Part shown: piece after piece, positions 40,579-56,327 of the stretch
Position numbering within the stretch: position 1 is the first letter of the stretch
Layout of the letters: the number at the start of each line of letters is the position of its first letter
From: a virus
Reading direction: 5' to 3' (one strand)
Length of the DNA: 64,000 nt
Virus record (IMG/VR): IMGVR_UViG_3300042291_001568
Span: 52,823-116,822 of that record
Position numbers and translations under genes: made by a program
Notes under the pieces: model-generated
Told to the model about the DNA's origin: nothing
What the model saw: only the letters and a program-made list of their open reading frames with translations
Databases searched by the model: none

Positions 40579-41400
40579 ATGTTCATAGTTATAGAAGGCT
40601 CAGACGGCTCTGGCAAAAGCTCTCTTACAGACGAGGTTTCCCGCCAGTTAGCGGACAGATACCCCGACTTTCATATCACGCGTTTCCACAAAGGGCGCCC
40701 AGAAGAAGAGTCTCGCAGGTGGGTTCTTAACGATTGGGTAATGTCGATTGAAAACATTAACTGGTTTGAGGCCGTCGCTGTAGCGGACAGATGGCATTGG
40801 GGCGAAGCAACATACGCACCGGTAAAGCGGCCTCACACGTGTAAAGACGCCTTCGGTCTTCTTGGCGTAGCTGGTTGGCGCTGGACAGAGTGGTTTATGG
40901 CGTCACGGGGTATTGCGCAATTCTGGCTTTATCAACCTTTAGATGTAATCAAAACTAGGGTGGCTATTCGTGGAGATGATTTTGTAAAACTAGATGAACT
41001 CGAGAAAATCGTAGATCTATATGAACAGACTTCTCAGGAAGTTTTCAGTCTTGCTGGCAAACTGACTCCTCGCGCTGACAGCGTTGCCTCCATTGACTTG
41101 CTTGCTCAATATGTCATACACCGCGCAGAAGAAGTACACGATGAGGCCAAAAAGTTAGCGCAATTTGGCGAGTACATCGGGTCTCCAAACCCTAAAATTC
41201 TTTACATCGGTAGCTGGGACACTAATGGCAGCATTCTTCCATGCTTCCCAGCAGAAGGAAGCTCAGAAGAAGCGCTTATTGAGTCATTGCCAGATACTGT
41301 GTGGCGAAGCGCTGGTGTAGTCAATCAGAACAATATGTCTGTTGGAAGGCTAACCAGCCTTATCACAATTCTTGGCAATCCCGAGATTGAAAGGATATAG
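40579..41400 (+). CDS. tmk: Thymidylate/dNMP kinase with short C-terminal extension
   Basis: P-loop IEGSDGSGKS and the ADRWHWGE (DR) motif. Confidence 0.8.
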   Translation: MFIVIEGSDGSGKSSLTDEVSRQLADRYPDFHITRFHKGRPEEESRRWVLNDWVMSIENINWFEAVAVADRWHWGEATYAPVKRPHTCKDAFGLLGVAGWRWTEWFMASRGIAQFWLYQPLDVIKTRVAIRGDDFVKLDELEKIVDLYEQTSQEVFSLAGKLTPRADSVASIDLLAQYVIHRAEEVHDEAKKLAQFGEYIGSPNPKILYIGSWDTNGSILPCFPAEGSSEEALIESLPDTVWRSAGVVNQNNMSVGRLTSLITILGNPEIERI

Positions 41401-41405
41401 CAATA

Positions 41406-42260
41406 ATGGATGTAAAGGTAAAAACGATTGAGATTGAAGACGGCGTAAACGGCTACGTTGATCTTGTTCAACACGTGTTAAAGCACGGCGAGCATGTCGC
41501 GCCTAGAGGAATGAATACTAGAGAAATAGAAGATGCTACTATTTATATTTCAGACGTCAGAGCCGCGCTTCCTTTAGGTGTAAACCGAGGCACTGTTCCA
41601 GGTATCGGTGCTGTTGAAGCATGCCAATTGATGTCAGGGCTAAGCATTCCGCAATTGGTGATTGACATTGGTCCGCAGTTTGCCAATTACACGGAGGACG
41701 ACGGGCTATTTCACGGCTCGTACGGAACAAGAACAAAAGGTCAATACGATGTGATGATTGAAAGACTACGCAAAGACCCAGATACGAGACAAGCAGTAGT
41801 CACTATTTGGAATCCTGAGCGTGACATGCTTGAAAAGAAGCGCGACTACCCTTGCACAATTTTGCATCAGTTCCGTATCCGCAATAACAAGCTTAACATG
41901 AGCGTATATATGCGATCAAATGACGTGTGGCTTGGCGCCGCATACGATTTCTTTCAATTCACACGAGTGCAATTGGCTATGTGCTCCGTTCTTGGTATTG
42001 AGCCAGGTGCCTATGCCCACCACGTCGGTTCTCTTCACATTTACGAAAACAACTATGAAGCAGCGGACGCTCTTAGAAAAACAAGCAATGTTGAAGTACC
42101 GCCAGAAATAACAGGAAGATCGTGGCGTGAAGTCGAAGCTTCTGCATCTTTAGCGTTGTACGCAACTACGCACCCAGACACACTTGAACGTTTATCACCA
42201 GCCGAGCGGTGGTACGCAGACGCAATGATCAAAGCAATAGACAAGAACAAAGGAAAATAA
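41406..42260 (+). CDS. Thymidylate-synthase-superfamily enzyme with cytosine-type Asp (dCMP hydroxymethylase/methylase-like)
   Basis: DTRQAV..DYPCT..YMRSNDVWLGAAYDFFQF..HHVGSLHIY; catalytic Cys codon at 41853; Asp codon at 41946. Confidence 0.85.
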   Translation: MDVKVKTIEIEDGVNGYVDLVQHVLKHGEHVAPRGMNTREIEDATIYISDVRAALPLGVNRGTVPGIGAVEACQLMSGLSIPQLVIDIGPQFANYTEDDGLFHGSYGTRTKGQYDVMIERLRKDPDTRQAVVTIWNPERDMLEKKRDYPCTILHQFRIRNNKLNMSVYMRSNDVWLGAAYDFFQFTRVQLAMCSVLGIEPGAYAHHVGSLHIYENNYEAADALRKTSNVEVPPEITGRSWREVEASASLALYATTHPDTLERLSPAERWYADAMIKAIDKNKGK

Positions 42261-42262
42261 AT

Positions 42263-42436
42263 ATGGACGACAAGTTCAACTCAACACCGATGAAAGATGC
42301 TGCGGTAAGCATGCATGAGTTGTATGAAACACTTAAAGAAGCAGGATTCTCTAGACGAGAAGCTCTCGAGCTGGTTTCTAAAATAATGACATCCGCAGTT
42401 AGTGACGCAATTAGACACAGTCAGGACGACCAATAG
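42263..42436 (+). CDS. Small hypothetical protein
   Basis: ATG 42263 after AAGGA; HELYETLKEAGFSRREALELV helix; coupled to the next gene. Confidence 0.6.
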   Translation: MDDKFNSTPMKDAAVSMHELYETLKEAGFSRREALELVSKIMTSAVSDAIRHSQDDQ

Positions 42437-42909
42437 TGACGGACACACGTCCTTCGTGGGACGAGACATGGCTCGCTGTAGCCGAAACTATAAGCAAACG
42501 CTCTAGATGCTCTCGCGCTCAGATGGGCGCTGTCATTGTTTCTCACGATCAGCACATTGTGTCAACTGGATACAACGGGCCGGCGGCTACTTGGCCAGAA
42601 GCTGGTGACTGTATGAACTGGTGCGAACGAGCTCAGGGCAAAACTCCACTAGACAATATGTACGACGGCTGTCCAGCAATTCACGCCGAAGCAAACGCTC
42701 TTTTGTACGTAGACCGCTCTGTAAGTGAGTTTGGAACTATATACATAACAAGCGCACCGTGCACGCAATGCGCTAAACTTATTTCTAACTCTGGCATATA
42801 CCGAGTTGTATGCCGACTTCGCCAGGCAGATATGCATCGGCGTCCGTACGACGTTATTGACTACCTGATAAAGTGCGGCATTGAAGTATTAGCTATCGAG
42901 GACAAATGA
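42436..42909 (+). CDS. dCMP deaminase
   Basis: RSRCSRAQMGAVIV..STGYNG..IHAEANAL..APCTQCAKLI Zn-deaminase motifs. Confidence 0.9.
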   Translation: MTDTRPSWDETWLAVAETISKRSRCSRAQMGAVIVSHDQHIVSTGYNGPAATWPEAGDCMNWCERAQGKTPLDNMYDGCPAIHAEANALLYVDRSVSEFGTIYITSAPCTQCAKLISNSGIYRVVCRLRQADMHRRPYDVIDYLIKCGIEVLAIEDK

Positions 42910-44729
42910 CAACAACAGACTTATCAAACGTACAACTACACTTAGTAGACTCGGCCGAAAAAGCTACTCAGTTTCTTGAGTGGTTGAGCCAGCGGCGTCC
43001 GCACAACGCGCTTGCCGTTGACACTGAAACTGGCGAGCTTCCAGGCAATCCTCGGGACCACGCATTTTCTCCATGGCATGGTCGTCTTCGTTTAGTCCAG
43101 GTTGGCGACGGTGAGCAAGGTTGGTCTATTCCGTGGGACGAATGGAAAGGTGTCTTCTACGAAGGCATGGATAAGTTTGACGGTCCTATCATCTGCCACA
43201 ACATTGCGTTTGAAGCGCGATGGTTTGCTGTTCAGTCTCGTTGGGAACTACCTTGGCACCGTGCGCATGACACGATGATTATGGCTCATATTATTGACCC
43301 ACTTGGATCTGGCGCTCTCAAGCGTCTTGCAGCATTGCACATTGATAGCCGTGCAGTTGCTCTTCAGGACACGCTAGACACTGAACTAGCAAAGAATGGT
43401 TGGACATGGGGAACTGTGCCTATTAACTTCCAACCATATTGGTCGTATGGCGCGCTTGACTGCGTATTGACTACTCGTCTCTGGGAACAGTTTTACGAAA
43501 AGTGCGGCCCTGGTGCTGCGTACTCAAAACCGTATGAACTTGAAATGCAGACACGACGAATTGTCACACGCATGGAACTAAACGGCGCACGAATTGACTT
43601 AGACTACTCAAAGAAGAAATACGAAGAGCTGACAGCGTACGCAGACTCGGTCAAAGTCTGGGCTAAGCAGCAATATGGTGGAGTGTCAATTACAAGCAAC
43701 CAGCAGTTAGTTCGTTTGTTTGAGAGTCTTGGCGCAGAAATTAGTGAGTACACTCCTACTGGCCAGAAGTCTTGCACTAAAGATCAGCTCAGAATGCTGA
43801 TGATTGACACTACGCCAGAAATAACCAATTTAGCCGACACGTGCTTGAAGCAACGAAAAGCCGACAAACTGGCCAATACTTATTTTTCTAATTTCATTAC
43901 TGACAACGTCAACGGCTTCGTTCATCCATCTGTTAGAACACTTGGTGCTAGGACAAGTCGTATGTCTATTACGAGTCCTGCCCTACAGACTCTTCCAAAA
44001 GGCGACAATGTAGTCCGTAGCGCGTTTATTCCAAAAGATGATGACCATGTGATTGTCACAAGCGACCTTGACCAGGTTGAGTTTAGAATGTTTGCAAGTC
44101 TGTCTCAAGATGAGAACTTAGTTAATCTTTTCCATCTGGCAGACGCCACTGGATCAGATCCTTTTACTGAAATCGGTCGTGAGGTTTACGCAGATCCTGA
44201 AATGCAGAAGTCAGACAAACGACGTGGGCTTATTAAGAGCATGGTGTACGGGCGACTATATGGAGCAGGCGTCGCAAAGCAGGCGCTAACTGCTGGAGTG
44301 CACGAGGCGCAGATGAAGCATACTTCAGACGCTTTTGATAGCAGGTTCCCCGGCATGTCGCATTTCCAAAAACAAATTGAAGATGTCGGTATGCGGAGGA
44401 CTAGAGCTGAAGGCCAAGGCTACGTGTACACATGGACTGGGCGTAGACTTCCATGCGACGATAACCGCGTATACACCTTAGTCAACTACCTAATTCAAGG
44501 TGGAGCAGCAGAGGTGTTCAAGAGCAACCTCATTAAGTTGGATCAAGCGGATCTTACAGAGCTGCTTATCGTTCCTGTTCACGACGAAATAGTGCTCAAT
44601 GCACCACGCAAAGATGCTGAAGAAATCAAACGTATTGTAAAAGAATGCATGACAACAACCGAAGGCTGGGCTGTTCCTTTAACAGCAGACGTTGACGGTC
44701 CACTTGAAAATTGGGGGGATAAGTACTGA
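42906..44729 (+). CDS. polA: Family A DNA polymerase with 3'-5' exonuclease, no 5'-3' exonuclease
   Basis: AVDTETG / CHNIAFE / YGALDC exonuclease motifs; SDLDQVEFR (A), KSMVYGRLYG (B), VHDEIV (C). Confidence 0.93.
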   Translation: MTTTDLSNVQLHLVDSAEKATQFLEWLSQRRPHNALAVDTETGELPGNPRDHAFSPWHGRLRLVQVGDGEQGWSIPWDEWKGVFYEGMDKFDGPIICHNIAFEARWFAVQSRWELPWHRAHDTMIMAHIIDPLGSGALKRLAALHIDSRAVALQDTLDTELAKNGWTWGTVPINFQPYWSYGALDCVLTTRLWEQFYEKCGPGAAYSKPYELEMQTRRIVTRMELNGARIDLDYSKKKYEELTAYADSVKVWAKQQYGGVSITSNQQLVRLFESLGAEISEYTPTGQKSCTKDQLRMLMIDTTPEITNLADTCLKQRKADKLANTYFSNFITDNVNGFVHPSVRTLGARTSRMSITSPALQTLPKGDNVVRSAFIPKDDDHVIVTSDLDQVEFRMFASLSQDENLVNLFHLADATGSDPFTEIGREVYADPEMQKSDKRRGLIKSMVYGRLYGAGVAKQALTAGVHEAQMKHTSDAFDSRFPGMSHFQKQIEDVGMRRTRAEGQGYVYTWTGRRLPCDDNRVYTLVNYLIQGGAAEVFKSNLIKLDQADLTELLIVPVHDEIVLNAPRKDAEEIKRIVKECMTTTEGWAVPLTADVDGPLENWGDKY

Positions 44730-45196
44730 TGAAAAGAGTAGTAATAGCTGTAGACCCAGGGAAGGCAAGTGGAATGTGCGCATTTAGCATTGCGCAAGGA
44801 GAAGAGCCAGTACTGCTGTGGTCAGGCGAGTATCAGCCAGAGGAATACGCGCAGCCTCTTAGACAGGCCATTGCTGAGTACGCAGCAGGCAACTGCAATA
44901 TAGAAATAGTATGCGAGCGGTTTACAATAAACGCTCAAACAGTGAGAAACTCGCAGGCACCCTACTCTCTAGAACAAATTGGAGTTCTTAAGCAGATAAT
45001 GCGCGACTGTGGAATGAAAGATATAGATCTGAAGTATCAAAACCCGTCAGATGCCAAAAGAATGTTTCCAAATGAAGCGTTAAAGAAACTAGGGTACTGG
45101 CATGTTGGTGGTGGAGGACACGCTTTAGACGCCATACGCCACGGTCTGCTATTCCTAGCAAAAAACGGTTGGACACCTCTTAGACTACTTCAATAG
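44729..45196 (+). CDS. RuvC-like Holliday junction resolvase
   Basis: IAVDPGKASG..VCERF..HALDAIRHG. Confidence 0.75.
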   Translation: MKRVVIAVDPGKASGMCAFSIAQGEEPVLLWSGEYQPEEYAQPLRQAIAEYAAGNCNIEIVCERFTINAQTVRNSQAPYSLEQIGVLKQIMRDCGMKDIDLKYQNPSDAKRMFPNEALKKLGYWHVGGGGHALDAIRHGLLFLAKNGWTPLRLLQ

Positions 45197-45244
45197 ATAC
45201 TAAGAAAATAAATTGCAAAACTATGACATATTTGTCTTAGTATA

Positions 45245-45253
45245 TGATACAGT
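45245..45253 (+). promoter_or_regulatory. Extended -10 candidate TGATACAGT
   Basis: In the AT-rich gap before the helicase operon. Confidence 0.4.
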
Positions 45254-45283
45254 GACACATATCAAAATGACGAGAGGAAACAG

Positions 45284-47077
45284 GTGCCAGTAGCAGTCGA
45301 GCTCAACGAGTCGGGCGAGCACATCCGAATTGAGACAGAATGGCGCTATAAGGAACTCTGCAAGAGTATTCCTGGCGCGACATGGAATGCTGGAGATCAA
45401 GCGTGGCGAGCTCCTTTAGGTTGGACAACATGCTTGGCTCTTAGGTCAGTGTTTAAGTCTGATTTAGAAATTGGCCCACGGTTAGCTGCGTGGGCAGGCA
45501 ACGAGCTTGCTATACGAGTCACGCCAGCAAACGAACTACGAGACTTAGATACGTACGAAGGCGACGAAGATTTGTATCCTCACCAGCGCGCTGGAGTTGC
45601 ATTTCTTTCGCAAGCACGCCGTGCGTTACTGGCCGATGAGCCTGGCCTTGGTAAAACAGCACAGGCAATCCGTGCTTTAAAAAAGCTTAAAGAAACTGAG
45701 CAAGTATTTCCTGCTCTTATCGTTTGCCCAAACACGCTAAAGAAAAACTGGAAGCGTGAGTTTGCGATGTGGTGGCCAGACGTAAAGGTTCAAGTGATCT
45801 CTGGATCTGCATCGCAGCGCCGAGCGCAGCTTGAGACAGAAGCTGATGTATTCGTTATTAACTGGGAATCCCTCCGCGGCCACTCTCGCCTAGCACCGTA
45901 CGGTTCAGTCGCTCTGGCGCGATGCCCAGAGTGTGGCGGTCACGATGAAAAAGTAACTGAAAACCGCTGTGAAGTCCACTTACGCGAGCTGAATAAAATT
46001 GATTTCAAAGCCGTAGTAGCTGACGAAATTCACAGGTCTAAAGAACCTAAGTCAAAACAAACTCGTGCTCTGTGGGCAGCCACTGGCAACGCAGACATTC
46101 GGTATGCGATGACTGGTACACCAATTGCAAACAACGTACTTGACCTTTGGGCAATTCTTCACTGGCTATCGCCAACTGAATGGCCTAGCAAGACGCGATG
46201 GATTGATCGTATGGTTGACACAATGCTTAACGCTTTTGGGGGAATGATTGTCATCGGCGTAAAGCCGCACATGAACGATGAGTTCTACGCTGGAGTGCAT
46301 CCTCGCATGCGCAGAATGCTTAAAGCACGAGTGCTTCCATGGCTTCCGCCGGTCCTACGCGAACGCCGTGACGTTGAGATGTCAACTAAGCAAAAGAAAG
46401 CATATCAGCAAATGCGCGATACAATGATTGCTGAGCTCGAGGTTGGCGAAGCAGTAGTTGCGCCAAGTCCGCTTACGCAGACAACACGCTTGCTTCAATT
46501 TGCTAGCTCTTTCGCTTCTATAGATATAGACGAATTGACAGGCCAAATGAAAGTACTGCTATCTGAGCCTTCATGCAAAGTTGATGCGCTTATGGATGAC
46601 ATTTCAAGTGGCGACTTCGGCGATGACTCTGTAGCAGTTTGCGCAGTATCGCGGCAGCTCATTGAGCTTCTCAGCACAGCAATGACAAAAGCTAAAATCC
46701 CGCACGGATTGATCACAGGTGCGCAGAATGAAGACGAACGTCAACAAGCGGTTGATGATTTTCAGTCTGGAAAGATTAAGTGGATCCTATTTACAGCCCA
46801 GGCTGGTGGTGTCGGCATCACGCTTACAGCAGCTCGCAGGCTCGTAATGCTTCAGCGTCCTTGGTCACTGGTTGACTACAAGCAAGCTCTTGACCGTGTA
46901 CACCGCATCGGTAGCGAAATACACGACAGCATCGTCATTATGGACTATGTTACCGAAGGAACTATTGAAGAACGAGTTATTCAAGTGCTTGACAGCAAAG
47001 CTGACAACTTCGAGAATATCGTAAGAGACAAGGCACAGCTAATGAAAATGCTACGAGACGAAAAGGCAGGGATTTAA
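45284..47077 (+). CDS. SNF2-family (SF2) helicase with Zn-finger-like insert
   Basis: LLADEPGLGKT, VADEIH, MTGTPIAN, AGGVGITL..QALDRVHRIG; insert RCPECGG..RCEVH. Confidence 0.9.
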   Translation: MPVAVELNESGEHIRIETEWRYKELCKSIPGATWNAGDQAWRAPLGWTTCLALRSVFKSDLEIGPRLAAWAGNELAIRVTPANELRDLDTYEGDEDLYPHQRAGVAFLSQARRALLADEPGLGKTAQAIRALKKLKETEQVFPALIVCPNTLKKNWKREFAMWWPDVKVQVISGSASQRRAQLETEADVFVINWESLRGHSRLAPYGSVALARCPECGGHDEKVTENRCEVHLRELNKIDFKAVVADEIHRSKEPKSKQTRALWAATGNADIRYAMTGTPIANNVLDLWAILHWLSPTEWPSKTRWIDRMVDTMLNAFGGMIVIGVKPHMNDEFYAGVHPRMRRMLKARVLPWLPPVLRERRDVEMSTKQKKAYQQMRDTMIAELEVGEAVVAPSPLTQTTRLLQFASSFASIDIDELTGQMKVLLSEPSCKVDALMDDISSGDFGDDSVAVCAVSRQLIELLSTAMTKAKIPHGLITGAQNEDERQQAVDDFQSGKIKWILFTAQAGGVGITLTAARRLVMLQRPWSLVDYKQALDRVHRIGSEIHDSIVIMDYVTEGTIEERVIQVLDSKADNFENIVRDKAQLMKMLRDEKAGI

Positions 47078-48060
47078 TGACAGAGTTTAACGTCACTGAT
47101 GGTGTTATGGGTGTTCCAGTAGAAATTGGAATAAAGAAACCACTAAAGATTTCTAACTCAGAAATCCAGACATTTAAAGATTGCCGTCGTAAGTGGTGGC
47201 TTAACTACTATCGTAGGCTTCAACCACAAAGCACTAACTTCACTGGTGCTCTTGCACTTGGCTCTAGAATTCACGGCGCTCTTGATATGTACTACTCAAC
47301 AGACACTCCTCTTCTTGACGCGCACGCAACGCTTGTTGCTCGTGACAAGCAGTTGTTGATTGATAGCTTCCGTGACACTATGGATCTAGACACTGAAGCC
47401 GAGCTTGGCCGCATTATGCTCGAAGGATACCTTCAATGGGTAGACGAGAACGGCATTGACGCAGAACTCGAGATGATTTCTACTGAAGAGATTATTGCGA
47501 TGCCGATGTTTGATGGTGAAGTGATACTTCAAGGAAAGCTCGATATGCGAGTCCGTCGCAAAGGCGATGGAGTACGCATGTTTAGAGACTTCAAGACAGT
47601 TGGCGGATCGTTCACTGAGTTCGCATCTCTTGCGCACATGAACGAACAAATCTTGACGTACATGCTTCTTGAAGCTGCACAAAACGCTGAAGGAGAGCGC
47701 AGCGAAGGCGGTATATTTACAATGCTCAAGAAAGTGAAGCGTACTGCTAACGCAAAGCCTCCTTTCTACGAGCAAATTGAAGTTCGGCATAACACATTCG
47801 CTCTCAGATCATTCTGGTCGCGAATACATGGCACGGTTCGTGACATGCTTATAGTGCGCAAAGCGCTTGATGATGGCCAAGACCATCACAACGTAGCGTA
47901 TCCTCGGCCTAGCCGAGACTGTAAGTGGAAATGCCAATTCTTCGCCATTTGCCCACTGTTTGACGACGGAAGCGCCGCCGAACAAGCAATTGCCGAATTG
48001 TATGTGGTCGATGACCCGTACGGTTACTACAAACCAACAGAGCTAAAAGGAAACGAGTGA
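47077..48060 (+). CDS. RecB/Cas4-like PD-(D/E)XK exonuclease
   Basis: SNSEIQTFKDCRRKW..QGKLD..RDFKT..CKWKCQFFAIC (1+3 Cys pattern). Confidence 0.85.
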   Translation: MTEFNVTDGVMGVPVEIGIKKPLKISNSEIQTFKDCRRKWWLNYYRRLQPQSTNFTGALALGSRIHGALDMYYSTDTPLLDAHATLVARDKQLLIDSFRDTMDLDTEAELGRIMLEGYLQWVDENGIDAELEMISTEEIIAMPMFDGEVILQGKLDMRVRRKGDGVRMFRDFKTVGGSFTEFASLAHMNEQILTYMLLEAAQNAEGERSEGGIFTMLKKVKRTANAKPPFYEQIEVRHNTFALRSFWSRIHGTVRDMLIVRKALDDGQDHHNVAYPRPSRDCKWKCQFFAICPLFDDGSAAEQAIAELYVVDDPYGYYKPTELKGNE

Positions 48061-48818: not shown

Positions 48819-48848
48819 CAACAAACACAGAAAGACACGGTAAATACC

Positions 48849-49430
48849 ATGAGTACACTCAATTGGGGAGACCTAGTTAAAGAAGCTGGCGATGTCGGCA
48901 GCTATGATCCACTTCCAGACGGTGACTACGATCTTGCAATCGTAGAAGGCGTCGCAAAGACAACGCAATCAGGAAAAACAATGTTCGCAGTTAAAGCACA
49001 GGTTCAGACAGGCGCCCACATGAAGCGTCTCGTCTGGGACAACTTGGTTGTCTCAACCGACAACCCAACTGCGCTTGGAATCTTTTTCCGCAAAATGAAT
49101 GCGCTTGGTCTTAACCGCGATTTCTTCGCAACAAGCCCAACCAACGCTCAAATTGAGCAAGCACTCAAGGGACGCACATTCCGTGCGCAAATTGGGTCAC
49201 GCACTTGGCAGGGTCAAAAGAAGAATGAAATCAAGTCATACTACAGTGCAGTTGCGTCAGCACCTGTTATTGCAGCGGCGGCAGCTCCTGCTCCAGCCCC
49301 TGCACCGGCTCCTGCTCCAGCACCGGCCCCAGCGCCTGCTCCTGCAGTTGCACCGGCACCAGTTGCAGCAGCTCCTGCTCCAGCAGCAGCACCAGTAGAC
49401 ATCAACACACCGCCAGTCGCTCCTTTCTGA
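48849..49430 (+). CDS. ssDNA-binding protein (DUF669-like) with Ala-Pro tail
   Basis: YDPLPDGDY..SGKTMF..VWDNLV..KKNEIKSY; (AP)n tail ending PF. Confidence 0.75.
   Translation: MSTLNWGDLVKEAGDVGSYDPLPDGDYDLAIVEGVAKTTQSGKTMFAVKAQVQTGAHMKRLVWDNLVVSTDNPTALGIFFRKMNALGLNRDFFATSPTNAQIEQALKGRTFRAQIGSRTWQGQKKNEIKSYYSAVASAPVIAAAAAPAPAPAPAPAPAPAPAPAPAVAPAPVAAAPAPAAAPVDINTPPVAPF
49280..49400 (+). repeat. Ala-Pro dipeptide repeat
   Basis: gctcctgctccagcccctgcaccggctcctgctcca... Confidence 0.85.
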
Positions 49431-49457
49431 TCACTAGATCATAGGAGTTTGTCGTGT

Positions 49458-49528
49458 GATGCGGCATAGACGGAACGTGTTTACTACACTTATATTTATT
49501 TGTGTAGGCACACCGTTTATGCCGCATC
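49458..49528. repeat. Long intergenic inverted repeat/hairpin
   Basis: GATGCGGCATA (49458-49468) / TATGCCGCATC (49518-49528), extended inward by GACGG/CCGTT and TACAC/GTGTA; AT-rich loop. Confidence 0.8.
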
Positions 49529-49530
49529 CG

Positions 49531-49539
49531 TGATATCAT
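49531..49539 (+). promoter_or_regulatory. Extended -10 candidate TGATATCAT for the glycosylation operon
   Basis: Immediately after the hairpin, 33 nt before the ATG; AAGGAG SD. Confidence 0.45.
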
Positions 49540-49572
49540 TTCTAATACGACACAGCGAAACAAGGAGAGTGT

Positions 49573-50820
49573 ATGCGGGTAGCGATACTTGAACCAGAGC
49601 CAGGAGTAAAAGGCCCAACGGCTTGGGCTTTCAGAATGAGATATGGATTTAGAGAACTAGGTCACGAGTGCGACGTAGTTTCTTTTACAAAGAGTGGAAA
49701 AGTCAGATCATCGTGGGGAAAGCCTCAACCAGGCGGCCGATGGTGGAATGAAGCGCCAGACGTAGTTGTCAAGAGCGCTAACCTTGTCGAGTTGCTAGAT
49801 AAATACGACATGGTTGTTCTTCCAGAAATCAAAGTCCCTTTGCACGACAAAATGGCAATCAAAGCAGGCGAAGATGTCATACCTGAGTACGTTGATGCGC
49901 TTCTTCGCACAAAAGCTAGGTGGACAACTTCATTACACGGATCTTTTTACCCAGCGAGCACAATTCCGTTTGTTCCACGTTTGCTCGAGGCTGAAAATAG
50001 AGGCAGCATGCTCGTCACAATGAGCGACGACTCAGCTACGGATAGCAATGATCTATTCAAAGGAATGAAATGGATCAAAGGATGTATGCCGTTTCTTCCA
50101 AGCTTTGCGATTGATGACCCAATTCCGCAGGAAAACATTGTAGGAACATCTGGAAGATTTATCTACAATAAAGGACAGCCGTTAATTGCTCTTGCAGGCG
50201 CACAATTGCCAGAAGACATTGTGGTTGAGATATGGGGATCGTGTTCAGTAGGGCTAGGTCCTTCACCGACGTACATTACGTATGAACAACTTCGCGACAA
50301 TTTTGGCGCTAAAGTTATCCGCTATGCTAAGCAAGCAGATATGGATAGGCCAGATGGACGTAAGGATGGAAACATAATTACTCCGTACGCTTGGGACGCA
50401 CGGATTCCAGGAAAAGCCTTAGTTCGCTATCTTGGCAACTACACTGATTCTGCTGCAATCGCATCGCGCTTTAAGGTTCATATGAACTTGACTGCGTATA
50501 ACTTTGCTCGAGGACTTGTGGAGTACTCCACGCTTGAAGCAGCCGATGCTGGCGCCATGTGTATTGTTCCGCAGCATCTATCTGACCCGCAGTTTCGTAT
50601 GATGGTGCTTGATTGGTATAAGGGATCTCCAACACAAGGGAGGCTCGTGAAGCCTGAAGGCCGAGAAATCATTGACCAAGTCACTGCAGCTTTTGTCAAG
50701 TGTCTAGAGATTTCTGACAGCGACAGACTTGAAATTGCTCGTCACAACAGAGAAGTCTTGCGTACACGAAATGATCCACGCAAGAGCGCTGAAATTATGA
50801 TTGAAAGCGCGTTCTCGTGA
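49573..50820 (+). CDS. GT-B glycosyltransferase, probably DNA-base type
   Basis: MRVAILEP..GHECDVV N-terminal Rossmann strand; C-terminal GLVEYSTLEAADAG nucleotide-sugar-binding motif. Confidence 0.65.
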   Translation: MRVAILEPEPGVKGPTAWAFRMRYGFRELGHECDVVSFTKSGKVRSSWGKPQPGGRWWNEAPDVVVKSANLVELLDKYDMVVLPEIKVPLHDKMAIKAGEDVIPEYVDALLRTKARWTTSLHGSFYPASTIPFVPRLLEAENRGSMLVTMSDDSATDSNDLFKGMKWIKGCMPFLPSFAIDDPIPQENIVGTSGRFIYNKGQPLIALAGAQLPEDIVVEIWGSCSVGLGPSPTYITYEQLRDNFGAKVIRYAKQADMDRPDGRKDGNIITPYAWDARIPGKALVRYLGNYTDSAAIASRFKVHMNLTAYNFARGLVEYSTLEAADAGAMCIVPQHLSDPQFRMMVLDWYKGSPTQGRLVKPEGREIIDQVTAAFVKCLEISDSDRLEIARHNREVLRTRNDPRKSAEIMIESAFS

Positions 50821-51578
50821 GGGGTTTGTCAGGGGCTGTTGTCGAGATACTTCCTAATGGAATAGTAAAAAAGTCTGGTGGCATAGTCGAGCGCACTCGA
50901 GAACAAGGCGAGTGGATTATGAAGCATGGTGGAGTCATATTTCCGCAGGTGCTTTCAATCACAGACGACGGGTACACAATGGAAGAACTTGAGTACGTCG
51001 AGTACTGGGAAAGTACTCCGTCATTTATTGTTCCCGCGCTTGCTAATCATGTGTGGACTCAGCCAGCCGTAGTTCCGCCTACAGCTAACACACAAGAGCT
51101 ACTTGAAGCCAAAATGAAACACACGATTGACAAGTACTTAGCAGAGCATATTGATGAAGCAACTAAGAAAGAAATAATTAACTCTGCTAAAATAGCAGGC
51201 GATGGCGCTTTTAGAATGAAGCACTGTCTCTCACATGGAGACCCGACGGCTGAAAACGTAATGAACCGTGCTGGGTACGGAAGAGTATTCATTGACCCAA
51301 TTCGGGCGACAGAAACTGTTCCCGACTCACCAGCAGTTGACATTGGAAAGATCCTGCAGAGTGCATGCGGCTGGGAAGATGCTAAGTACAATAACGGAGT
51401 GATTGCGTACCGCAGAGCAGACGTAAAAGATCTTATTGATGATGATAGGCTATTTGTTGTAGGTGAGGCATGGGCTGTTGTTCACGTGATGCGCGCTGTG
51501 CCTTACGTTTTAAGAAACATTCCTGACTCACTACCAAGAGTACTTACAGTGCTAGAGAGAGCGATAGAACGATGGTAA
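50817..51578 (+). CDS. APH/choline-kinase-like small-molecule kinase
   Basis: RGLSGA..IVKK..YTMEEL..LSHGDPTAENVM..FIDP..DIGKILQS. Confidence 0.75.
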   Translation: MRGLSGAVVEILPNGIVKKSGGIVERTREQGEWIMKHGGVIFPQVLSITDDGYTMEELEYVEYWESTPSFIVPALANHVWTQPAVVPPTANTQELLEAKMKHTIDKYLAEHIDEATKKEIINSAKIAGDGAFRMKHCLSHGDPTAENVMNRAGYGRVFIDPIRATETVPDSPAVDIGKILQSACGWEDAKYNNGVIAYRRADVKDLIDDDRLFVVGEAWAVVHVMRAVPYVLRNIPDSLPRVLTVLERAIERW

Positions 51579-52102
51579 AACAGATGACAATATGGTGCTC
51601 TGACATTGACGGCGTGCTTGTTGATTCTCGTGAACTTGTTCGCGAATCATACGCTGCTGTTGGTGTTGAAATGCCTGTGCAAGCCTGGGGTCACCCGTGG
51701 CAGACATGGTTGCCGAACGCCTTAGGTTCGCTGGAAAAAGCAAGAGAACTTCATGCGGAAAAAACTAAAAAATATGTAGAAACACTAAAAAATGGCGCAG
51801 CGATAAAACACAAGCTTCCATTTGCTGACATTGCTAGAGCGTTGGAGCGTGACCCAGCGTGCTTGGTGTACTACGTCACCGGCGCAGCCAATGACACGGC
51901 ACTCACAATTCTTACAGAACTTGGTCTCAACCACAAAAACTTAGTTGGCCACGGAGTTTCAACTACTGAAAGAGAAGCAGTCTTCCGCAAGCTTGGAAGT
52001 CGCGGTGTGTACATTGACGATCGCATTGAAGGACAAGCGCCTGCGCATGCAGCGGGTTGGGATTTTATTTGGGCCAAGCAGGACTGGCCTTGGAAGCAGT
52101 AG
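51572..52102 (+). CDS. HAD-superfamily phosphatase
   Basis: SDIDGVLVD motif I, YVTG motif II, YIDD motif IV. Confidence 0.8.
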   Translation: MVKQMTIWCSDIDGVLVDSRELVRESYAAVGVEMPVQAWGHPWQTWLPNALGSLEKARELHAEKTKKYVETLKNGAAIKHKLPFADIARALERDPACLVYYVTGAANDTALTILTELGLNHKNLVGHGVSTTEREAVFRKLGSRGVYIDDRIEGQAPAHAAGWDFIWAKQDWPWKQ

Positions 52103-52830
52103 TACTTGCAGCAGGCCGAGGCCAACGCATGGCTGGAGTTGCTAAGCCATTCTTTAAGCCTTTACTAGAGCTAAACGGGATCCCACTACTTGCATACGCT
52201 GTAGAGTACGCATCGGCATCTGGCGCCACTGCGTGTCATGTAGTAGTGTCGCCGCACAATAAAGAAGAAGTTTCTAGTGTTCTTTCGGCCTACTCTCAAT
52301 GGGTACAAATTGTAGTTCAAGAAGAACCGCTTGGTCCCGGGCATGCCACGTTGCTTGCACTTAAATGTATCCAATCGGATACAGTTATGCTGTTAATGAG
52401 CGACAACATTATGGACCAAGACACTGTTGTCAAAATGGCGCTAGACAGCGCTATGACTGGCGATAACGCCATAGGCGTAAGAACTGTTTCAATGCAGCAA
52501 GCGCACAGATTCACGCGTATCCGCAGCACCGGTAACGAATCATACGACTATGTTGAAGGGTCTAGCGTGTCACTAGATGACGCCTGGGAGGGATCTACAA
52601 TGGTTAAAGTCTGGTGCGGGCCTGTCATATTCAATACAAGTAGAGCACTTCAAGTTTTTTCAGAAGCATGGGAAAGTGCTGAATCTTTTAGTCCTGAATT
52701 GAAGCAAAGCGAGCTCAAGATTGGGCCGTATCTGTCTCAAATACTAAGCACTCGTACGACGCTTGTTGATGTAAAAGCAATTGACGTTGGAATTCCGTCA
52801 GCGTACACTGAGTCAGGTGGCGTAGTTTAA
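52090..52830 (+). CDS. Sugar-phosphate nucleotidyltransferase
   Basis: TTG start 52090 preferred over track 52057; VVLAAGRGQRM..KPLL..QEEPLGPGHA..LMSDN. Confidence 0.85.
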   Translation: MEAVVLAAGRGQRMAGVAKPFFKPLLELNGIPLLAYAVEYASASGATACHVVVSPHNKEEVSSVLSAYSQWVQIVVQEEPLGPGHATLLALKCIQSDTVMLLMSDNIMDQDTVVKMALDSAMTGDNAIGVRTVSMQQAHRFTRIRSTGNESYDYVEGSSVSLDDAWEGSTMVKVWCGPVIFNTSRALQVFSEAWESAESFSPELKQSELKIGPYLSQILSTRTTLVDVKAIDVGIPSAYTESGGVV

Positions 52831-53852
52831 TGACAAAAGTACTTATATCTGGAATGACTGCACCGCAGTCTTCTAAATTGCTAAACGAAAAGAACATTTC
52901 TTTTGCGGGTGCGATTTGTAAAATTCTTGAGTACAGCGGAGTTGAAGTTGTCTGGCAAGATCCGCAGGTTGGGTGGACGATTGACAGTGTTGCAGAATAT
53001 GACGCTGTGCTGCTTGGAATTGCTCCAGTTTTAAGTCTTACAGCGAATAAGTCTTACGGCATCTTGTCACTGATTGACACGATGAAAAATGACAAAAGAC
53101 TTTGCTTATTTATCGATGCTCCCGAGCCGTCTAAAGTACACGCAAGTCTTCGGTCAGCAAGCAAGGACTATAGCTCACGACTATTCAAAGAGTTCTATTC
53201 AAAAAGAAAAGATTTTAAGATAGCGGTAGATCTTCCGAAGATAGTAGACGCTGCCGACTACTTGCTAAACGAGAAGTGGCCAACAACGCTGTACCCAACT
53301 CTTCCGTGGAACGCTAAACACTTTTCAGCTACAGGACTTCCAGAAAACGTCACTAGTTCATTTGTTGGAATCAACGTTGATTCTTTTTATATAGAAAATT
53401 CTTCTAAAGTAAAAGAGCGTAGCAATCGGTGGGCTGTTGAATCTTTGCGGTCTTCTTGGGCAGTAAAAACCTCAGAAAATCTTATGTTCCCAAGCATAGC
53501 AACTAAGCAGGTTAAGACTGACGGAGATGCTGAAGCAATGGAAGTTATATCTAAAAGCGTCGGTTTGCTAATTGGACCGCACGACGATAAGATCACTTGG
53601 TGGTCTCCTAGATTTTTTCAAGCTATGAACACACTTACGCCTGTTGCTACCGAATGGCGAACGGCGGGTACAATAGGTAGCTCGTGGAGTCATTTAGCCG
53701 CGGGTATTGAACAAATGTCTTCAATTGATAGGTACGAGCTCGCGGCGGCTCAGCGAGAAGAGTATGCTGAAGCTATTCCAACACCACACGAAACACTTAC
53801 ACAACTACACAAGGAAATGAGAATTGACAACCATGTCAGTATTATTCAATAG
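52830..53852 (+). CDS. Second glycosyltransferase-like protein (T4 BGT-like GT-B pattern)
   Basis: MTKVLISG..YDAVLLG..LCLFIDAP pattern reminiscent of T4 beta-glucosyltransferase (YDRLIVV..YYLFTD); C-terminal WWSPRFFQAM..PV. Weak recognition. Confidence 0.5.
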   Translation: MTKVLISGMTAPQSSKLLNEKNISFAGAICKILEYSGVEVVWQDPQVGWTIDSVAEYDAVLLGIAPVLSLTANKSYGILSLIDTMKNDKRLCLFIDAPEPSKVHASLRSASKDYSSRLFKEFYSKRKDFKIAVDLPKIVDAADYLLNEKWPTTLYPTLPWNAKHFSATGLPENVTSSFVGINVDSFYIENSSKVKERSNRWAVESLRSSWAVKTSENLMFPSIATKQVKTDGDAEAMEVISKSVGLLIGPHDDKITWWSPRFFQAMNTLTPVATEWRTAGTIGSSWSHLAAGIEQMSSIDRYELAAAQREEYAEAIPTPHETLTQLHKEMRIDNHVSIIQ

Positions 53853-54300
53853 ATGGCTTGAAATGACCACAAAGCTGCAAACAGATGTGTACAACGCGAA
53901 CTACGACAAGTTTCACAGTAACGAGCCAAGCGACCTTAATGAGTTGATTGAGTACATCCGTTGGAATATGCTCGCCATTGACGATGAGCTTGCCGAAGTT
54001 CGTCAAGCCATTTCTTGGAAGCCGTGGCAGCACGATGAGCCGTACGCAGATCGCAAGGAGATTGTCAAAGAGTGCGTTGATGTCTTGCACTTTGTTGCGA
54101 ACATTCTTTGCGCAGCAGGGGCCACTGACGAAGAACTCGACATGGAATATCTTAAGAAAATGCAAAAAAATGCTGACCGCCAAAAGAATGGCTACCGAGT
54201 ACTTGACGATGGAATGAAATGTACAAGGTGCAATAGAGCCTTAGATGACTACGACGTAAGCAATTGTAATGACGCACTTTGCCCCGCAAAGGGAGCTTAA
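53833..54300 (+). CDS. All-alpha dimeric dUTPase / dCTPase-like NTP pyrophosphatase
   Basis: AIDDELAEV..WKPW..KECVDVLHF..YLKKMQKNADRQ; ATG 53833 (track 53824). Confidence 0.8.
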   Translation: MSVLFNRWLEMTTKLQTDVYNANYDKFHSNEPSDLNELIEYIRWNMLAIDDELAEVRQAISWKPWQHDEPYADRKEIVKECVDVLHFVANILCAAGATDEELDMEYLKKMQKNADRQKNGYRVLDDGMKCTRCNRALDDYDVSNCNDALCPAKGA

Positions 54301-54301
54301 C

Positions 54302-54532
54302 ATGGACTACTGGCTGGCAGTTCATTCAAAAAATGTTGTAGCCGGTGACGTTGTCAGAGTACGGTCTAGCGCATACCGCGGAGAGCTTGGAAAAATACAC
54401 AATGGAAGATTGTGCAAAGTGCTTGAGGCACGAGACGGTGACATTATCGTATGCTCTATAGACGAAATGTTGCCTTATCTCAGCAGAACGCATCATGCTC
54501 CGCACACACTAGAAAAGAGAGTAGTTGAATGA
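54302..54532 (+). CDS. Small SH3/KOW-like hypothetical protein
   Basis: VAGDVVRV..HNGRLCKVL..GDIIV; GGAG SD. Confidence 0.6.
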   Translation: MDYWLAVHSKNVVAGDVVRVRSSAYRGELGKIHNGRLCKVLEARDGDIIVCSIDEMLPYLSRTHHAPHTLEKRVVE

Positions 54533-54729
54533 GAGCAGCAATTGAGTTTGAAGTACTAGGGTCAACACTTCCACTAATGCTTAATGAAGCTAGAAAATCT
54601 TGGAAAGACCTTATGGAAGATATAGATGCTGAAATACCTAGTGATGCTGAAATACATATTGTCCCGCACGCCGGGAGCGACTACAGTGCTAAGGTGTTTG
54701 TACGAATGAAAATAGACAATGCCGAGTAA
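54529..54729 (+). CDS. Small hypothetical protein
   Basis: 66 aa, overlapped with genes on both sides. Confidence 0.55.
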   Translation: MRAAIEFEVLGSTLPLMLNEARKSWKDLMEDIDAEIPSDAEIHIVPHAGSDYSAKVFVRMKIDNAE

Positions 54730-55009
54730 CAAGCAACCACGGCAGGTATGCCTCGAAGAAGCAGCGCGCATCGTCTCGGGCGAGCGTGATGTTCAGTACG
54801 GCGGCCCGGAAAGTAACTTTAACCGCATTGCGCAAATCTGGTCTGTGATCTTTGGTATTCCAGTCACTAACGAAGATGTTGCCATGGCTATGGTTGCAGT
54901 AAAAGTTGCTAGGTACGCCTCAAAATCTGGATTTCAGCCAGACACTTGGACTGACATTGCTGGATACGCAGCTTGCGGCTTTGAAGTAGGGTCAATACAC
55001 AAAGACTAG
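54719..55009 (+). CDS. DUF6378-like protein
   Basis: AARIVSGERDVQYG..NFNRIAQIWS..DVAMAMVAVKVAR..DIAGYAA. Confidence 0.75.
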   Translation: MPSNKQPRQVCLEEAARIVSGERDVQYGGPESNFNRIAQIWSVIFGIPVTNEDVAMAMVAVKVARYASKSGFQPDTWTDIAGYAACGFEVGSIHKD

Positions 55010-55076
55010 TGTCACGTACATCGGCCCTCACTTGATACGGTTGTACTAACGAATTAGACACACGGAGAACTACATC

Positions 55077-56327
55077 ATGGCAAAATACACATTCGCAGAC
55101 TGCAATGGACTTGCAGCTTTCATGAGTCTTGGGTTTGTAAACTCTGGAATGGAAATGAATATCAGAACAGGGACGCTTAATTTTGGCAACCCTGTTGCAG
55201 AGTTGAACAGGCACCATCTTGGAGACAATTGGAGTTCATTCTTTTCTGACGACCCAAATGAATGGCCTGATGTAAAAGCTGATGTAGTGCTGGGTTGTCC
55301 ACCGTGTTCGGGCTGGTCCGTATGGTCAGGCCCAGCAAACCGAGGTGCCGACGCAAAAGCACACGAGCACACAGTCGCGTTCATGAAGTACGCGGCACGG
55401 ATCAAACCAAAAATGATCATCTTTGAGTGTGTTCAGCAGGCGTACACGCAAGGCCGTGACACGATGGTTAAGTACCGCGACATGGTTGAAGAACTGTCTG
55501 GCAAAGAGTATGACCTGTATCATGTAAAAATGAATAACCTTCAGGTCGGTGGATTCTCGTACCGAGCGCGGTACTTCTGGACTGCTGTTGAAAAAGGAAT
55601 GCCGTTTGGCGCTCAAGCAATTGCTCCCGCTGAAATGCCAACAATGATGGATGTAATCGGTGACTTAGCTGATCTTGAGATCACATGGGACGCACAGCGA
55701 TACGTTTCGGAGCCATCCAAGTACGTAAAACACTTGCGCAACGCAAGCGGCGTTGTTGATGGCCACATGAATAAGAACAACTTGGATTCCCAGAGAATTC
55801 AAGAAATCTTTGACATCCTCGGCAACGACGGATGGAAGCCAATGATGCCGATCAACAAAGCGCTTCGTGAAGCTGTTGACCGCAACGGCGATAGGTTCCC
55901 ACAAGCCTGGCTTGGTCAAGAAGAAAAGATCCGTGCTAAAGATTTTTACATGGGATTTTCTATGCCTTGCCGCTGGAACGGCGACTCGTGGTGCCACGTG
56001 ATGACAGGCGGCGCGCTTGATCACATCGTACATCCAACGCTTCAACGAAGAATTACACACAGAGAAGCCGCCCGCATTCAAGGTCTTCCAGACAACTGGG
56101 AATTTTCTAAGGCAAAAACGTATTCCGCACTGGGAGCAACATGGGGCAAAGCCGTTGCAGTACAGGCCGCTAATTGGATTGGTCAAGCAGCAGTTGCTGC
56201 TTTAGACGGTCAGCCAAGCGGACCGCAGGGCGAACTCATTGGTAACAGAGAGTGGCTGATTGATACTGACAAAGGATTTAGCCGCCAGACTGTTAAGAAA
56301 ACCTGGTATGCGAATAAGCAAGGCTAA
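55077..56327 (+). CDS. Divergent DNA cytosine-C5 methyltransferase homologue
   Basis: GCPPCSGWS (motif IV), FECV (VI), SYRARYF (VIII), THREAARIQGLP (IX), GKAV (X); motif I is atypical (DCNGLAAF). Confidence 0.8.
   Translation: MAKYTFADCNGLAAFMSLGFVNSGMEMNIRTGTLNFGNPVAELNRHHLGDNWSSFFSDDPNEWPDVKADVVLGCPPCSGWSVWSGPANRGADAKAHEHTVAFMKYAARIKPKMIIFECVQQAYTQGRDTMVKYRDMVEELSGKEYDLYHVKMNNLQVGGFSYRARYFWTAVEKGMPFGAQAIAPAEMPTMMDVIGDLADLEITWDAQRYVSEPSKYVKHLRNASGVVDGHMNKNNLDSQRIQEIFDILGNDGWKPMMPINKALREAVDRNGDRFPQAWLGQEEKIRAKDFYMGFSMPCRWNGDSWCHVMTGGALDHIVHPTLQRRITHREAARIQGLPDNWEFSKAKTYSALGATWGKAVAVQAANWIGQAAVAALDGQPSGPQGELIGNREWLIDTDKGFSRQTVKKTWYANKQG

Follow-up and report, generated by a model that had tools for sequence, protein, structure and literature searches.

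Does an actinophage from lake water build glycosylated hydroxymethylcytosine into its DNA, as phage T4 does? The question is raised by positions 40579 to 56327 of a 64,000-nucleotide stretch of viral DNA (the window; positions 52,823 to 116,822 of IMG/VR record IMGVR_UViG_3300042291_001568), which forms the right-hand part of a 116.8-kb record estimated to be ~87% complete. A homologue of thymidylate synthase (TS) lies there among nucleotide-precursor genes, and a second run of genes encodes two glycosyltransferases (GTs), a putative sugar-nucleotide cassette, a MazG-type pyrophosphatase and an enzyme resembling cytosine-C5 methyltransferases. A first interpretation made from the letters alone (the sequence-only reading) had taken the two clusters for one undescribed pathway of DNA base hypermodification. 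Our analysis makes replacement of cytosine by hydroxymethylcytosine probable, and the fuller pathway, in which the cassette-linked GT of 415 amino acids (aa) also glycosylates the replaced base, is about evenly poised between right and wrong. Observed directly are gene families, signatures of active sites, protein folds and how the genes co-vary among relatives.

The genes in question are all located on the plus strand, in two clusters 7 kb apart, within an operon for replication and nucleotide metabolism and not among structural or lysis genes.

40579..41400, plus strand: dTMP-kinase-like P-loop nucleotide kinase, 273 aa (phrog_761 'thymidylate kinase', 3.3e-14)
41406..42260, plus strand: ThyA-fold enzyme (the TS homologue) with the signature of a T4 gp42-type 5-hydroxymethyl-dCMP synthase (Thymidylat_synt PF00303, 1.3e-25)
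42209..42436, plus strand: small open reading frame (ORF), 75 aa, between the TS homologue and the deaminase; no family found
42436..42909, plus strand: deoxycytidine monophosphate (dCMP) deaminase (PF00383, 7.6e-20; phrog_174, 1.5e-41)
42906..44729, plus strand: family A DNA polymerase (PF00476, 3.4e-56)
49573..50820, plus strand: GT-B glycosyltransferase of GT4/AGT type, 415 aa (AlphaFold2 model, Foldseek)
50817..51578, plus strand: APH-fold kinase, 253 aa, predicted sugar-phosphate/anomeric sugar kinase (PF01636, 2.4e-4)
51572..52102, plus strand: HAD-superfamily phosphatase, 176 aa (PF00702, 4.8e-4)
52057..52830, plus strand: sugar-1-phosphate nucleotidyltransferase, 257 aa (PF12804, 3.8e-14; PF00483, 1.8e-12)
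52830..53852, plus strand: small GT-B glycosyltransferase of BGT type, 340 aa (AlphaFold2 model, Foldseek, VIA-align)
53824..54300, plus strand: all-alpha NTP pyrophosphatase of MazG/dimeric-dUTPase type, predicted dCTPase (and dUTPase) (dUTPase_2 PF08761, 2.4e-11; phrog_18650, 2.9e-21)
54269..54729, plus strand: two small ORFs, 87 aa and 66 aa; no family found
54719..55009, plus strand: DUF6378 protein, 96 aa (PF19905, 3.9e-27)
55077..56327, plus strand: C5-cytosine-methyltransferase-like enzyme (the C5-methylase-like enzyme), 416 aa (DNA_methylase PF00145, 2.8e-23)

Every gene listed in the sequence-only reading is a plus-strand ORF, and its family assignments hold. The region had been described as starting with the TS homologue; both of its first two genes are present, with the kinase (40579-41400) ahead of the TS homologue (41406-42260), followed by the 75-aa ORF, the deaminase and the polymerase. 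The tight coupling claimed for the second run is borne out by overlapping stop/start pairs at 50817/50820, 51572/51578, 52830/52830 and 53824/53852.

The TS homologue finds its best PDB match in MilA (1e-19). It was aligned with E. coli ThyA, T4 gp42, RB69 gp48 and the homologues from the nearest named relative, Actinomycetia phage DSL-LC01 (OQ999401, Dishui Lake), and from Gordonia phage GodonK (NC_048176), and its residues are given in E. coli numbering. The nucleophile Cys146 is kept, with its PC motif aligned with those of ThyA, gp42 and RB69 gp48. The column of ThyA Asn177 holds an Asp (N177D; AAYD, versus PFN in ThyA and RND in gp42), the cytosine-type Asp to which the sequence-only reading had pointed. 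In the ThyA superfamily, N177D selects dCMP, cytosine being preferred over uracil (PMC13326640). In addition, residue 143 is changed from Leu to Asp (L143D; RDYPC, versus ALAPC in ThyA and SDFMC in gp42), and an acidic residue at this position is associated with access to water and with non-methyl products (PMC13326640). Ser167 (MRSND) and Arg126 (DPDTR) are also kept; this Ser and Arg select deoxyribonucleotides, and MilA has Ala176 and Lys133 instead (PMC5175136). Moreover, Asp169 is kept (RSND, versus RSQN in RB69), without the D169N exchange that marks the flavin-dependent 5-hydroxy-dCMP synthases of RB69, DLP3 and RL38JI; all tested 5-hydroxy-dCMP synthases carry Asn at 169 (PMC13326640). 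These motifs, the Asp at the Asn177 column included, are invariant across 13 unique homologues from related contigs. In the alignment, the TS homologue matches T4 gp42 at every tested position and fails the single test for a 5-hydroxylase. By signature it qualifies as a gp42-type dCMP hydroxymethylase and is predicted to form 5-hydroxymethyl-dCMP (5hm-dCMP).

The adjacent kinase (40579-41400) is 50% identical to the 'thymidylate kinase' of DSL-LC01 and 27% identical to GodonK gp194, and is predicted to phosphorylate 5hm-dCMP. In T4, a TS-type hydroxymethylase, a kinase and a dCMP deaminase form a trio, with the deaminase feeding the synthesis of deoxythymidine monophosphate (dTMP). The phage's own genome encodes ThyX, so the deaminase of the window fits this ordinary T4 role, the supply of deoxyuridine monophosphate (dUMP) to dTMP synthesis. 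The family A polymerase is context and would need to accept a modified deoxynucleoside triphosphate (dNTP). The MazG-type enzyme of the second cluster is predicted to act as a dCTPase, a role deduced only from its co-variation with the TS homologue.

This co-variation was examined in ~140 loci tiled with the window proteins, together with four complete relatives (one of clade A and three of clade B); a few loci share a contig, and the counts below are therefore of loci, not of independent phages. The same gene order is found again in more than 100 independent viral contigs, so the arrangement is not due to chance. In clade A, to which the window belongs, the polymerase is preceded by the kinase, the TS homologue and the deaminase, and downstream of it come an SSB-like gene, a second GT (in some loci accompanied by sugar genes), the 340-aa GT, the MazG gene, small ORFs, DUF6378 and the C5-methylase-like gene. 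Clade B has the same replication genes and the 340-aa GT in the same place, and is devoid of the kinase, the TS homologue, the deaminase, the second GT, MazG, DUF6378 and the C5-methylase-like gene. At clade-B loci such as L091, L104 and L119, a conserved protein of 156-158 aa without a family directly precedes the polymerase, in the place that clade A gives to the kinase, the TS homologue and the deaminase.

The counts follow this division closely. The TS homologue, the deaminase and MazG are all present at 16 loci and all absent from 16, and at one further locus the TS homologue would lie beyond the cut end. The second GT and MazG occur together at 70 loci, are both missing from 45, and are discordant at none. 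MazG, the C5-methylase-like gene and DUF6378 are all found at 55 loci and none of them at 27, with a single locus lacking only DUF6378. Over whole records, PF00303 is matched in 5/5 of clade A and 0/5 of clade B, three of the latter being complete with terminal repeats; these three complete clade-B genomes have no match to PF00145 either. Furthermore, when the phage's own genome is profiled gene by gene against the four complete relatives (one of clade A, three of clade B), the TS-linked genes of the region prove to be those for the kinase, TS homologue, 75-aa ORF, deaminase, MazG, DUF6378 and C5-methylase-like enzyme. ThyX, a further candidate for the module, was discarded, since the clade-A genome G006 lacks it and one TS-less genome has it. 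Across the loci examined, the two clusters belong together and are always gained or lost as one. This joint gain and loss ties MazG, DUF6378, the C5-methylase-like gene and the swappable GT with its sugar genes to the hydroxymethylase. A functional link between the two clusters is thereby supported without a discordant locus, and the co-occurrence that the sequence-only reading had proposed to look for in related contigs is seen in the loci compared. TET/JBP dioxygenases, another route to a hydroxymethyl base, gave no match above cut-off in the phage's own genome or its relatives, which shows little as the control genomes also gave none.

The position of the second GT, between the SSB-like gene and MazG, is filled in several ways.

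47 loci: a paralogue of the 340-aa GT
9 loci: the 415-aa GT with kinase, HAD protein and nucleotidyltransferase (the window type)
3 loci: the 415-aa GT alone
3 loci, plus DSL-LC01: a paralogue with UDP-galactopyranose mutase
1 locus: the 415-aa GT with a 318-aa protein, a 121-aa HAD protein and a nucleotidyltransferase

The 121-aa HAD protein, found in relative L008 in place of the window-type HAD, is of AfhF-like size. This slot holds exchangeable sugar cassettes, a pattern expected of glycan diversification on DNA.

Neither transferase of the window belongs to a described family by sequence: the 415-aa and 340-aa proteins have no match among Pfam, PHROG or NCBIfam families. A comparison of both transferases, the APH kinase and the HAD protein with PDB chains, by single-sequence or profile search, yielded nothing significant. 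AlphaFold2 models, built from alignments of 59 homologues each, show a GT-B fold for both the 415-aa protein (predicted local distance difference test score, pLDDT, 93.7) and the 340-aa protein (pLDDT 94.6). The structure search that had been suggested for these two proteins thus returns GT-B folds, and Foldseek ranks the DNA glucosyltransferases of T4 first. For the 415-aa model the first rank is T4 alpha-glucosyltransferase (AGT; 1.1e-11), which also gives the longest alignment in VIA-align (331-335 residues, Z 24.5). For the 340-aa model it is T4 beta-glucosyltransferase (BGT; 1.3e-5), again first in VIA-align (Z 17.1, root-mean-square deviation 3.9, 297 residues aligned), followed by SenB (16.5). 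The 340-aa family has no sequence similarity to T4 BGT (hhalign probability 0.9%; no Pfam match), and neither transferase qualifies by sequence as a member of a T4 family. The GT-B fold seen in the models does not by itself fix the acceptor of either transferase. The 415-aa GT is confined to relatives with the TS homologue, and it is the best candidate for the transferase that puts a sugar on hydroxymethylcytosine. For the 340-aa family, IMG/VR yields 408 relatives, and clustering at 50% identity gives 595 clusters; a search of species genomes with the 340-aa protein found no relative.

The genes that follow the 415-aa GT suggest how its donor could be made. In the APH kinase family, the catalytic loop HGDPxxxN (HGDPTAEN in the window) and the metal-binding IDP are invariant, and viral APH clusters were found in the ESM atlas at 0.99. 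The kinase of the window is a distant relative of the AfhE kinase domain, judging from its match to that domain of the AfhE homologue RB69 gp52 (hhalign E 1.3e-4, probability 54%; blastp 4e-4). In the HAD protein family, motif I DIDGV (DxDG) and motif IV DD are invariant; the HAD protein has a weak profile match to sugar phosphatase TM_1254 (0.039) and, with its family motifs intact, no detectable similarity to RB69 gp51. The nucleotidyltransferase matches the GlmU N-domain, AglF and RmlA in NCBIfam (1e-14 to 1e-17), and GalU/YngB and HddC-like enzymes in the PDB. These matches support a route of the phage's own to a nucleoside diphosphate (NDP)-sugar, which agrees with the self-made sugar foreseen in the sequence-only reading. 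The kinase gene comes first and is separated from the nucleotidyltransferase gene by that for the HAD protein, and the 116.8-kb record (~87% complete) has no match to the SIS-domain arabinose-5-phosphate isomerase (PF01380). With unfused genes and no such isomerase, the starting sugar phosphate is probably a common host metabolite, and the sugar of the cassette is probably not arabinofuranose.

The C5-methylase-like enzyme keeps its catalytic residues, namely motif IV GCPPC, the Glu of motif VI (FECV) and the RxR of motif VIII (RAR). Its motif I reads F-A-D-C-N-G versus FxGxG, its motif X reads GKAV (GKAVAV) versus GNAVP, and its match to PF00145 begins only at model position 54. The catalytic and the altered cofactor motif states are conserved in 49 unique homologues, and the altered states are also seen in GodonK gp110 (37% identical). 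With the motifs for S-adenosylmethionine (SAM) rebuilt, a plain methylase is unlikely. A plain methylase would moreover be left without a substrate in fully substituted DNA, and the gene co-varies strictly with the hydroxymethylase; this co-variation suggests that the reaction of the enzyme depends on a modified base. DUF6378, which appears in the literature only in passing mentions in unrelated phage papers, co-varies with MazG and the C5-methylase-like gene at 55/56 loci and is absent from TS-less genomes. Among the small ORFs, the 75-aa ORF is present in the clade-A genome G006 and absent from the three TS-less genomes, the 66-aa ORF occurs in TS-bearing loci only, and the 87-aa ORF is kept in both clades.

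Taken together, these observations can be assembled into a pathway, of which every chemical step, the identity of the sugar and the incorporation into DNA are inferred. The ThyA-fold enzyme would convert dCMP to 5hm-dCMP, and the adjacent dTMP-kinase-like enzyme would start the phosphorylation of this product toward the triphosphate. The deaminase would turn leftover dCMP into dUMP, from which the ThyX of the phage would make dTMP. The MazG-type pyrophosphatase would remove dCTP, so that the polymerase would insert hydroxymethylcytosine. After replication, the 415-aa AGT/GT4-type transferase would glycosylate the hydroxymethyl group. For its donor, the APH-fold kinase would phosphorylate C1 of a sugar phosphate, the HAD protein would strip the distal phosphate, and the nucleotidyltransferase would produce the NDP-sugar. 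The 340-aa BGT-type transferase may add a further or different sugar, and the C5-methylase-like enzyme belongs to the module. A more specific version, which we regard as doubtful, gives this widespread lineage a so far undescribed cytosine hypermodification, hydroxymethylcytosine carrying a sugar made by a stand-alone route off a common sugar phosphate, neither glucose from host UDP-glucose nor arabinose. In this version the C5-methylase-like enzyme would perform a SAM-independent reaction on hydroxymethylcytosine in DNA, substituting or removing the hydroxymethyl oxygen via a Cys-C6 adduct.

Several observations weigh against the glycosylated-DNA pathway, among them the Pfam matches of the APH (2.4e-4) and HAD (4.8e-4) proteins, which fall under the cut-offs of that database. 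Others concern the acceptor. Hydroxymethylcytosine DNA might be made while the GTs and the cassette act on an envelope glycan, a phage or host protein, or a small molecule, leaving the DNA with plain hydroxymethylcytosine or a derivative formed by the C5-methylase-like enzyme. In VIA-align, the GT4 enzymes BshA, PimA, HepE and TarM reach a Z of ~25 with the 415-aa model and tie with AGT; the acceptors of these enzymes are lipids, thiols and polysaccharides. Neither transferase is basic, the isoelectric points being mildly acidic to neutral (6.0 and 6.6, versus 9.05 for T4 BGT), though this property is not informative as a proxy for DNA binding. Particularly, the 340-aa GT is kept at the same position in three complete genomes that have neither a ThyA-fold gene nor a C5 methylase. 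Hydroxymethylcytosine is therefore dispensable for at least one of the two transferases, and the acceptor of the 340-aa enzyme need not be this base; in the window it may extend a glycan, use another acceptor or not act on DNA. The two GTs that had been placed in one pathway thus part company, in that only the 415-aa GT and its cassette follow the TS homologue in their distribution, the 340-aa GT being independent of it. In addition, a third, canonical GT4 gene lies nearby (57987-59045, minus strand), so glyco-genes unlinked to the module are carried as well. On the other side, the second GT, here the 415-aa protein, never occurs without the TS homologue and MazG, the GTs are flanked by the SSB-like and NTPase genes within the replication operon, and the best single Foldseek matches are the two DNA glucosyltransferases of T4. 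We consider the explanation by a non-DNA acceptor unlikely, but not negligible.

The palindrome statistics and the C5-methylase-like gene bear on a different explanation, in which the nucleotide enzymes only reshape the dNTP pools, for dTTP supply or for a dCTP depletion that starves the host or a defence system, with incorporation partial or nil. The phage's own genome mildly avoids 4-bp palindromes (median observed/expected 0.83, and 0.78 for C-containing ones), whereas the same ratio is 0.93 for T4, 0.97 for RB69 and 1.00 for GodonK (stretches). Fully protected DNA is not expected to avoid palindromes, and the avoidance hints weakly at continued exposure of the DNA to restriction enzymes. 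A C5-methylase-like gene is difficult to accommodate once every C5 position carries a substituent, and a true methylase would need unsubstituted cytosine; the rebuilt SAM motifs, however, speak against a plain methylase. Moreover, no role beyond DNA-precursor synthesis is known for a deoxy-specific hydroxymethylase of the Asp type that comes with its own kinase, and the strictly co-varying GT points to a DNA product. A mere change of the pools is thus very unlikely. Among 6-bp palindromes of the phage's own genome, CACGTG is the most strongly over-represented (38, versus ~18 expected) and TCCGGA is absent. In a 26-kb stretch of DSL-LC01 (L001, 78000-104000), observed/expected is 0.00 for ATAT and TTAA and 0.49 for AATT.

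Still less probable is that the TS homologue yields another C5-substituted dCMP that is carried in DNA, for example the 5-methyl-dCMP of phage XP12 or the 5-hydroxy-dCMP of RB69. Some room for this explanation is left because the predicted product depends on only a few signature residues, whose calibration comes mostly from phages that infect Gram-negative bacteria. Position 143, however, is an Asp rather than a hydrophobic residue and marks non-methyl products, position 169 is an Asp where the tested 5-hydroxy-dCMP synthases all have Asn, and a methyl group would leave the co-varying GT no hydroxyl. Finally, the sequence-only reading had allowed for a base-J-like glycosyl-hydroxymethyluracil replacing thymine, with the deaminase converting 5hm-dCMP to 5hm-dUMP; the deaminase gene is translationally near that of the TS homologue, and the two co-vary, but this option is hardly credible, because T4 has the same trio with the deaminase serving dTMP synthesis, ThyX can use the dUMP here, the TS homologue has the cytosine-type Asp, the co-varying dCTPase-type NTPase fits the exclusion of cytosine and not of thymine, and no dTTP-excluding function is seen.

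The surroundings of the module fit a phage of Actinobacteria. A WhiB gene in the window indicates an actinobacterial host, as does the relationship to DSL-LC01. The stretch is present in 24 lake-water metagenome runs, in all of them as assembled contigs, with no RNA run among them. The genes between the polymerase and the 415-aa GT encode RuvC-like, SNF2, PD-(D/E)XK, AAA_24 and SSB-like proteins, and the C5-methylase-like gene is followed on its 3' side by a pyrimidine-dimer glycosylase gene and then by WhiB. Two further features lie beyond these genes.

57987-59045, minus strand: canonical GT4 glycosyltransferase, the third GT (Glycos_transf_1, 2.2e-16)
63615-63989, minus strand: Na+/H+ exchanger membrane domain fragment (PF00999, 6.2e-13), running off the contig end

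The GT4 gene heads a divergent, highly variable minus-strand block after WhiB. At this block, relatives carry other glyco-genes, methyltransferases, 2-oxoglutarate (2OG)-Fe(II) oxygenases or a tryptophan halogenase; that of L008 (15762-18255, 18323-18994) holds three tandem 2OG-Fe(II) oxygenases, an Asp/Arg hydroxylase-like gene and a glutathione peroxidase. The exchanger fragment at the end of the record could be an auxiliary gene, host DNA flanking an integrated phage, or the product of a join made in assembly. Outside the window, a staphylococcal-nuclease-like endonuclease (PF00565, 8e-14; G000:C1:9491-9895, minus strand, locus L184) is also present in the TS-bearing G006 and absent from the three complete TS-less genomes, a comparison of 1 versus 3 genomes only; it may be a host-DNA nuclease that feeds the pathway. 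In the contig of L140 the replication module is duplicated in inverted orientation and its genes run outward on both strands, probably as an assembly artefact.

If the proposed pathway is true, hydroxymethylcytosine hypermodification extends beyond the T-even-type phages, with their Gram-negative hosts, to an abundant phage lineage of Actinobacteria. This lineage is marked by the 340-aa GT, some of whose relatives among public viral contigs carry the module, and it includes cultured soil relatives on Gordonia. The pathway would further imply new DNA glycosyltransferase families without sequence similarity to those of T4, and a modular slot for the exchange of sugar cassettes, presumably under the pressure of modification-dependent restriction. 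DUF6378, the C5-methylase-like enzyme and the 75-aa ORF would become functionally testable through their strict link to a hydroxymethylase. Such enzymes are useful for the labelling and sequencing of 5-hydroxymethylcytosine, and hypermodified DNA alters how phages appear in metagenomes and nanopore data.

Four known systems can be compared with the module. DSL-LC01 and GodonK have syntenic modules, with TS homologues (68% and 37% identical, respectively) of the same Asp signature, MazG, C5-methylase-like genes (71% and 37% identical), BGT-like transferases and WhiB. Their published annotations differ and read thymidylate synthase, hypothetical protein and methyltransferase, and in the DSL-LC01 paper mutase and methylase are classed among the auxiliary metabolic genes; the sugar cassettes of both phages are also different from that of the window. 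The literature search turned up no report of DNA modification for GodonK or for similar actinophages. GodonK, which is cultured, carries the kinase, the Asp-type TS homologue, the deaminase, a MazG-type dUTPase and the methylase-like gene, together with two GTs of the 340-aa family (gp116, gp118) and two further annotated GTs (gp114, gp115). Another cultured Gordonia phage, Phendrix, likewise has the TS homologue, MazG, the C5-methylase-like gene and GT homologues. As most of the module is present in this cultured phage, the prediction is testable at the bench.

Rhizobium phage RL38JI (Pootjesviridae) contains hexosyl-5-hydroxycytosine, for which a phage UDP-galactopyranose mutase provides the furanose donor. 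It is paralleled by the mutase located between two GTs, in the same slot, in DSL-LC01, L069, L070 and L076, whereas the window has no mutase, and the RL38JI precursor is 5-hydroxycytosine and not hydroxymethylcytosine. The Afh system for arabinosyl-5-hydroxycytosine (RB69, DLP3, HY126; PMC13326640) shares more with the window, including a TS homologue beside a dTMP-kinase-like kinase, GT-B transferases and a MazG-type dCTPase. In this system, AfhE, a nucleotidyltransferase fused to an APH-like kinase, and the HAD phosphatase AfhF convert arabinose-5-phosphate to UDP-arabinofuranose (PMC13326640). The window likewise combines an APH-fold kinase, a HAD phosphatase and a nucleotidyltransferase for an NDP-sugar, and its kinase is weakly homologous to the RB69 enzyme. 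The window TS homologue, however, keeps Asp169, where the Afh enzymes have Asn and use flavin. With neither the AfhE fusion nor the arabinose-5-phosphate isomerase, and with a HAD protein unlike RB69 gp51, the sugar route of the window is not a member of the Afh system. Its kinase, phosphatase and nucleotidyltransferase logic nevertheless is that of the published AfhE/AfhF route (PMC13326640), and the overall scheme is that of T4, so the pathway cannot be called undescribed.

T4 itself (gp42, gp1, gp56, Cd, AGT, BGT) has a ThyA-fold dCMP hydroxymethylase with the same residues (RSND...D, Asp143), a nucleotide kinase, a dCMP deaminase, an all-alpha NTP pyrophosphatase and two GT-B transferases, AGT and BGT, which are the best or tied-best solved structures for the two window enzymes. 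The T4-like scheme of the sequence-only reading is in line with the hydroxymethylase signature, the kinase, the deaminase and the MazG-type NTPase; the 340-aa GT does not depend on the TS homologue. The window phage differs from T4 in its actinobacterial host, family A polymerase and siphovirus-like layout, and its kinase is of the dTMP-kinase type, not of the gp1 type. Its transferases have no detectable sequence similarity to the T4 enzymes, and the BGT-like enzyme of its lineage also occurs without any hydroxymethylase. In addition, the phage has its own NDP-sugar genes, and its module includes a C5-methylase-like enzyme and DUF6378. If the proposed pathway is true, it is a variant of a known anti-restriction strategy, with a T4-like gene set in a lake actinophage.

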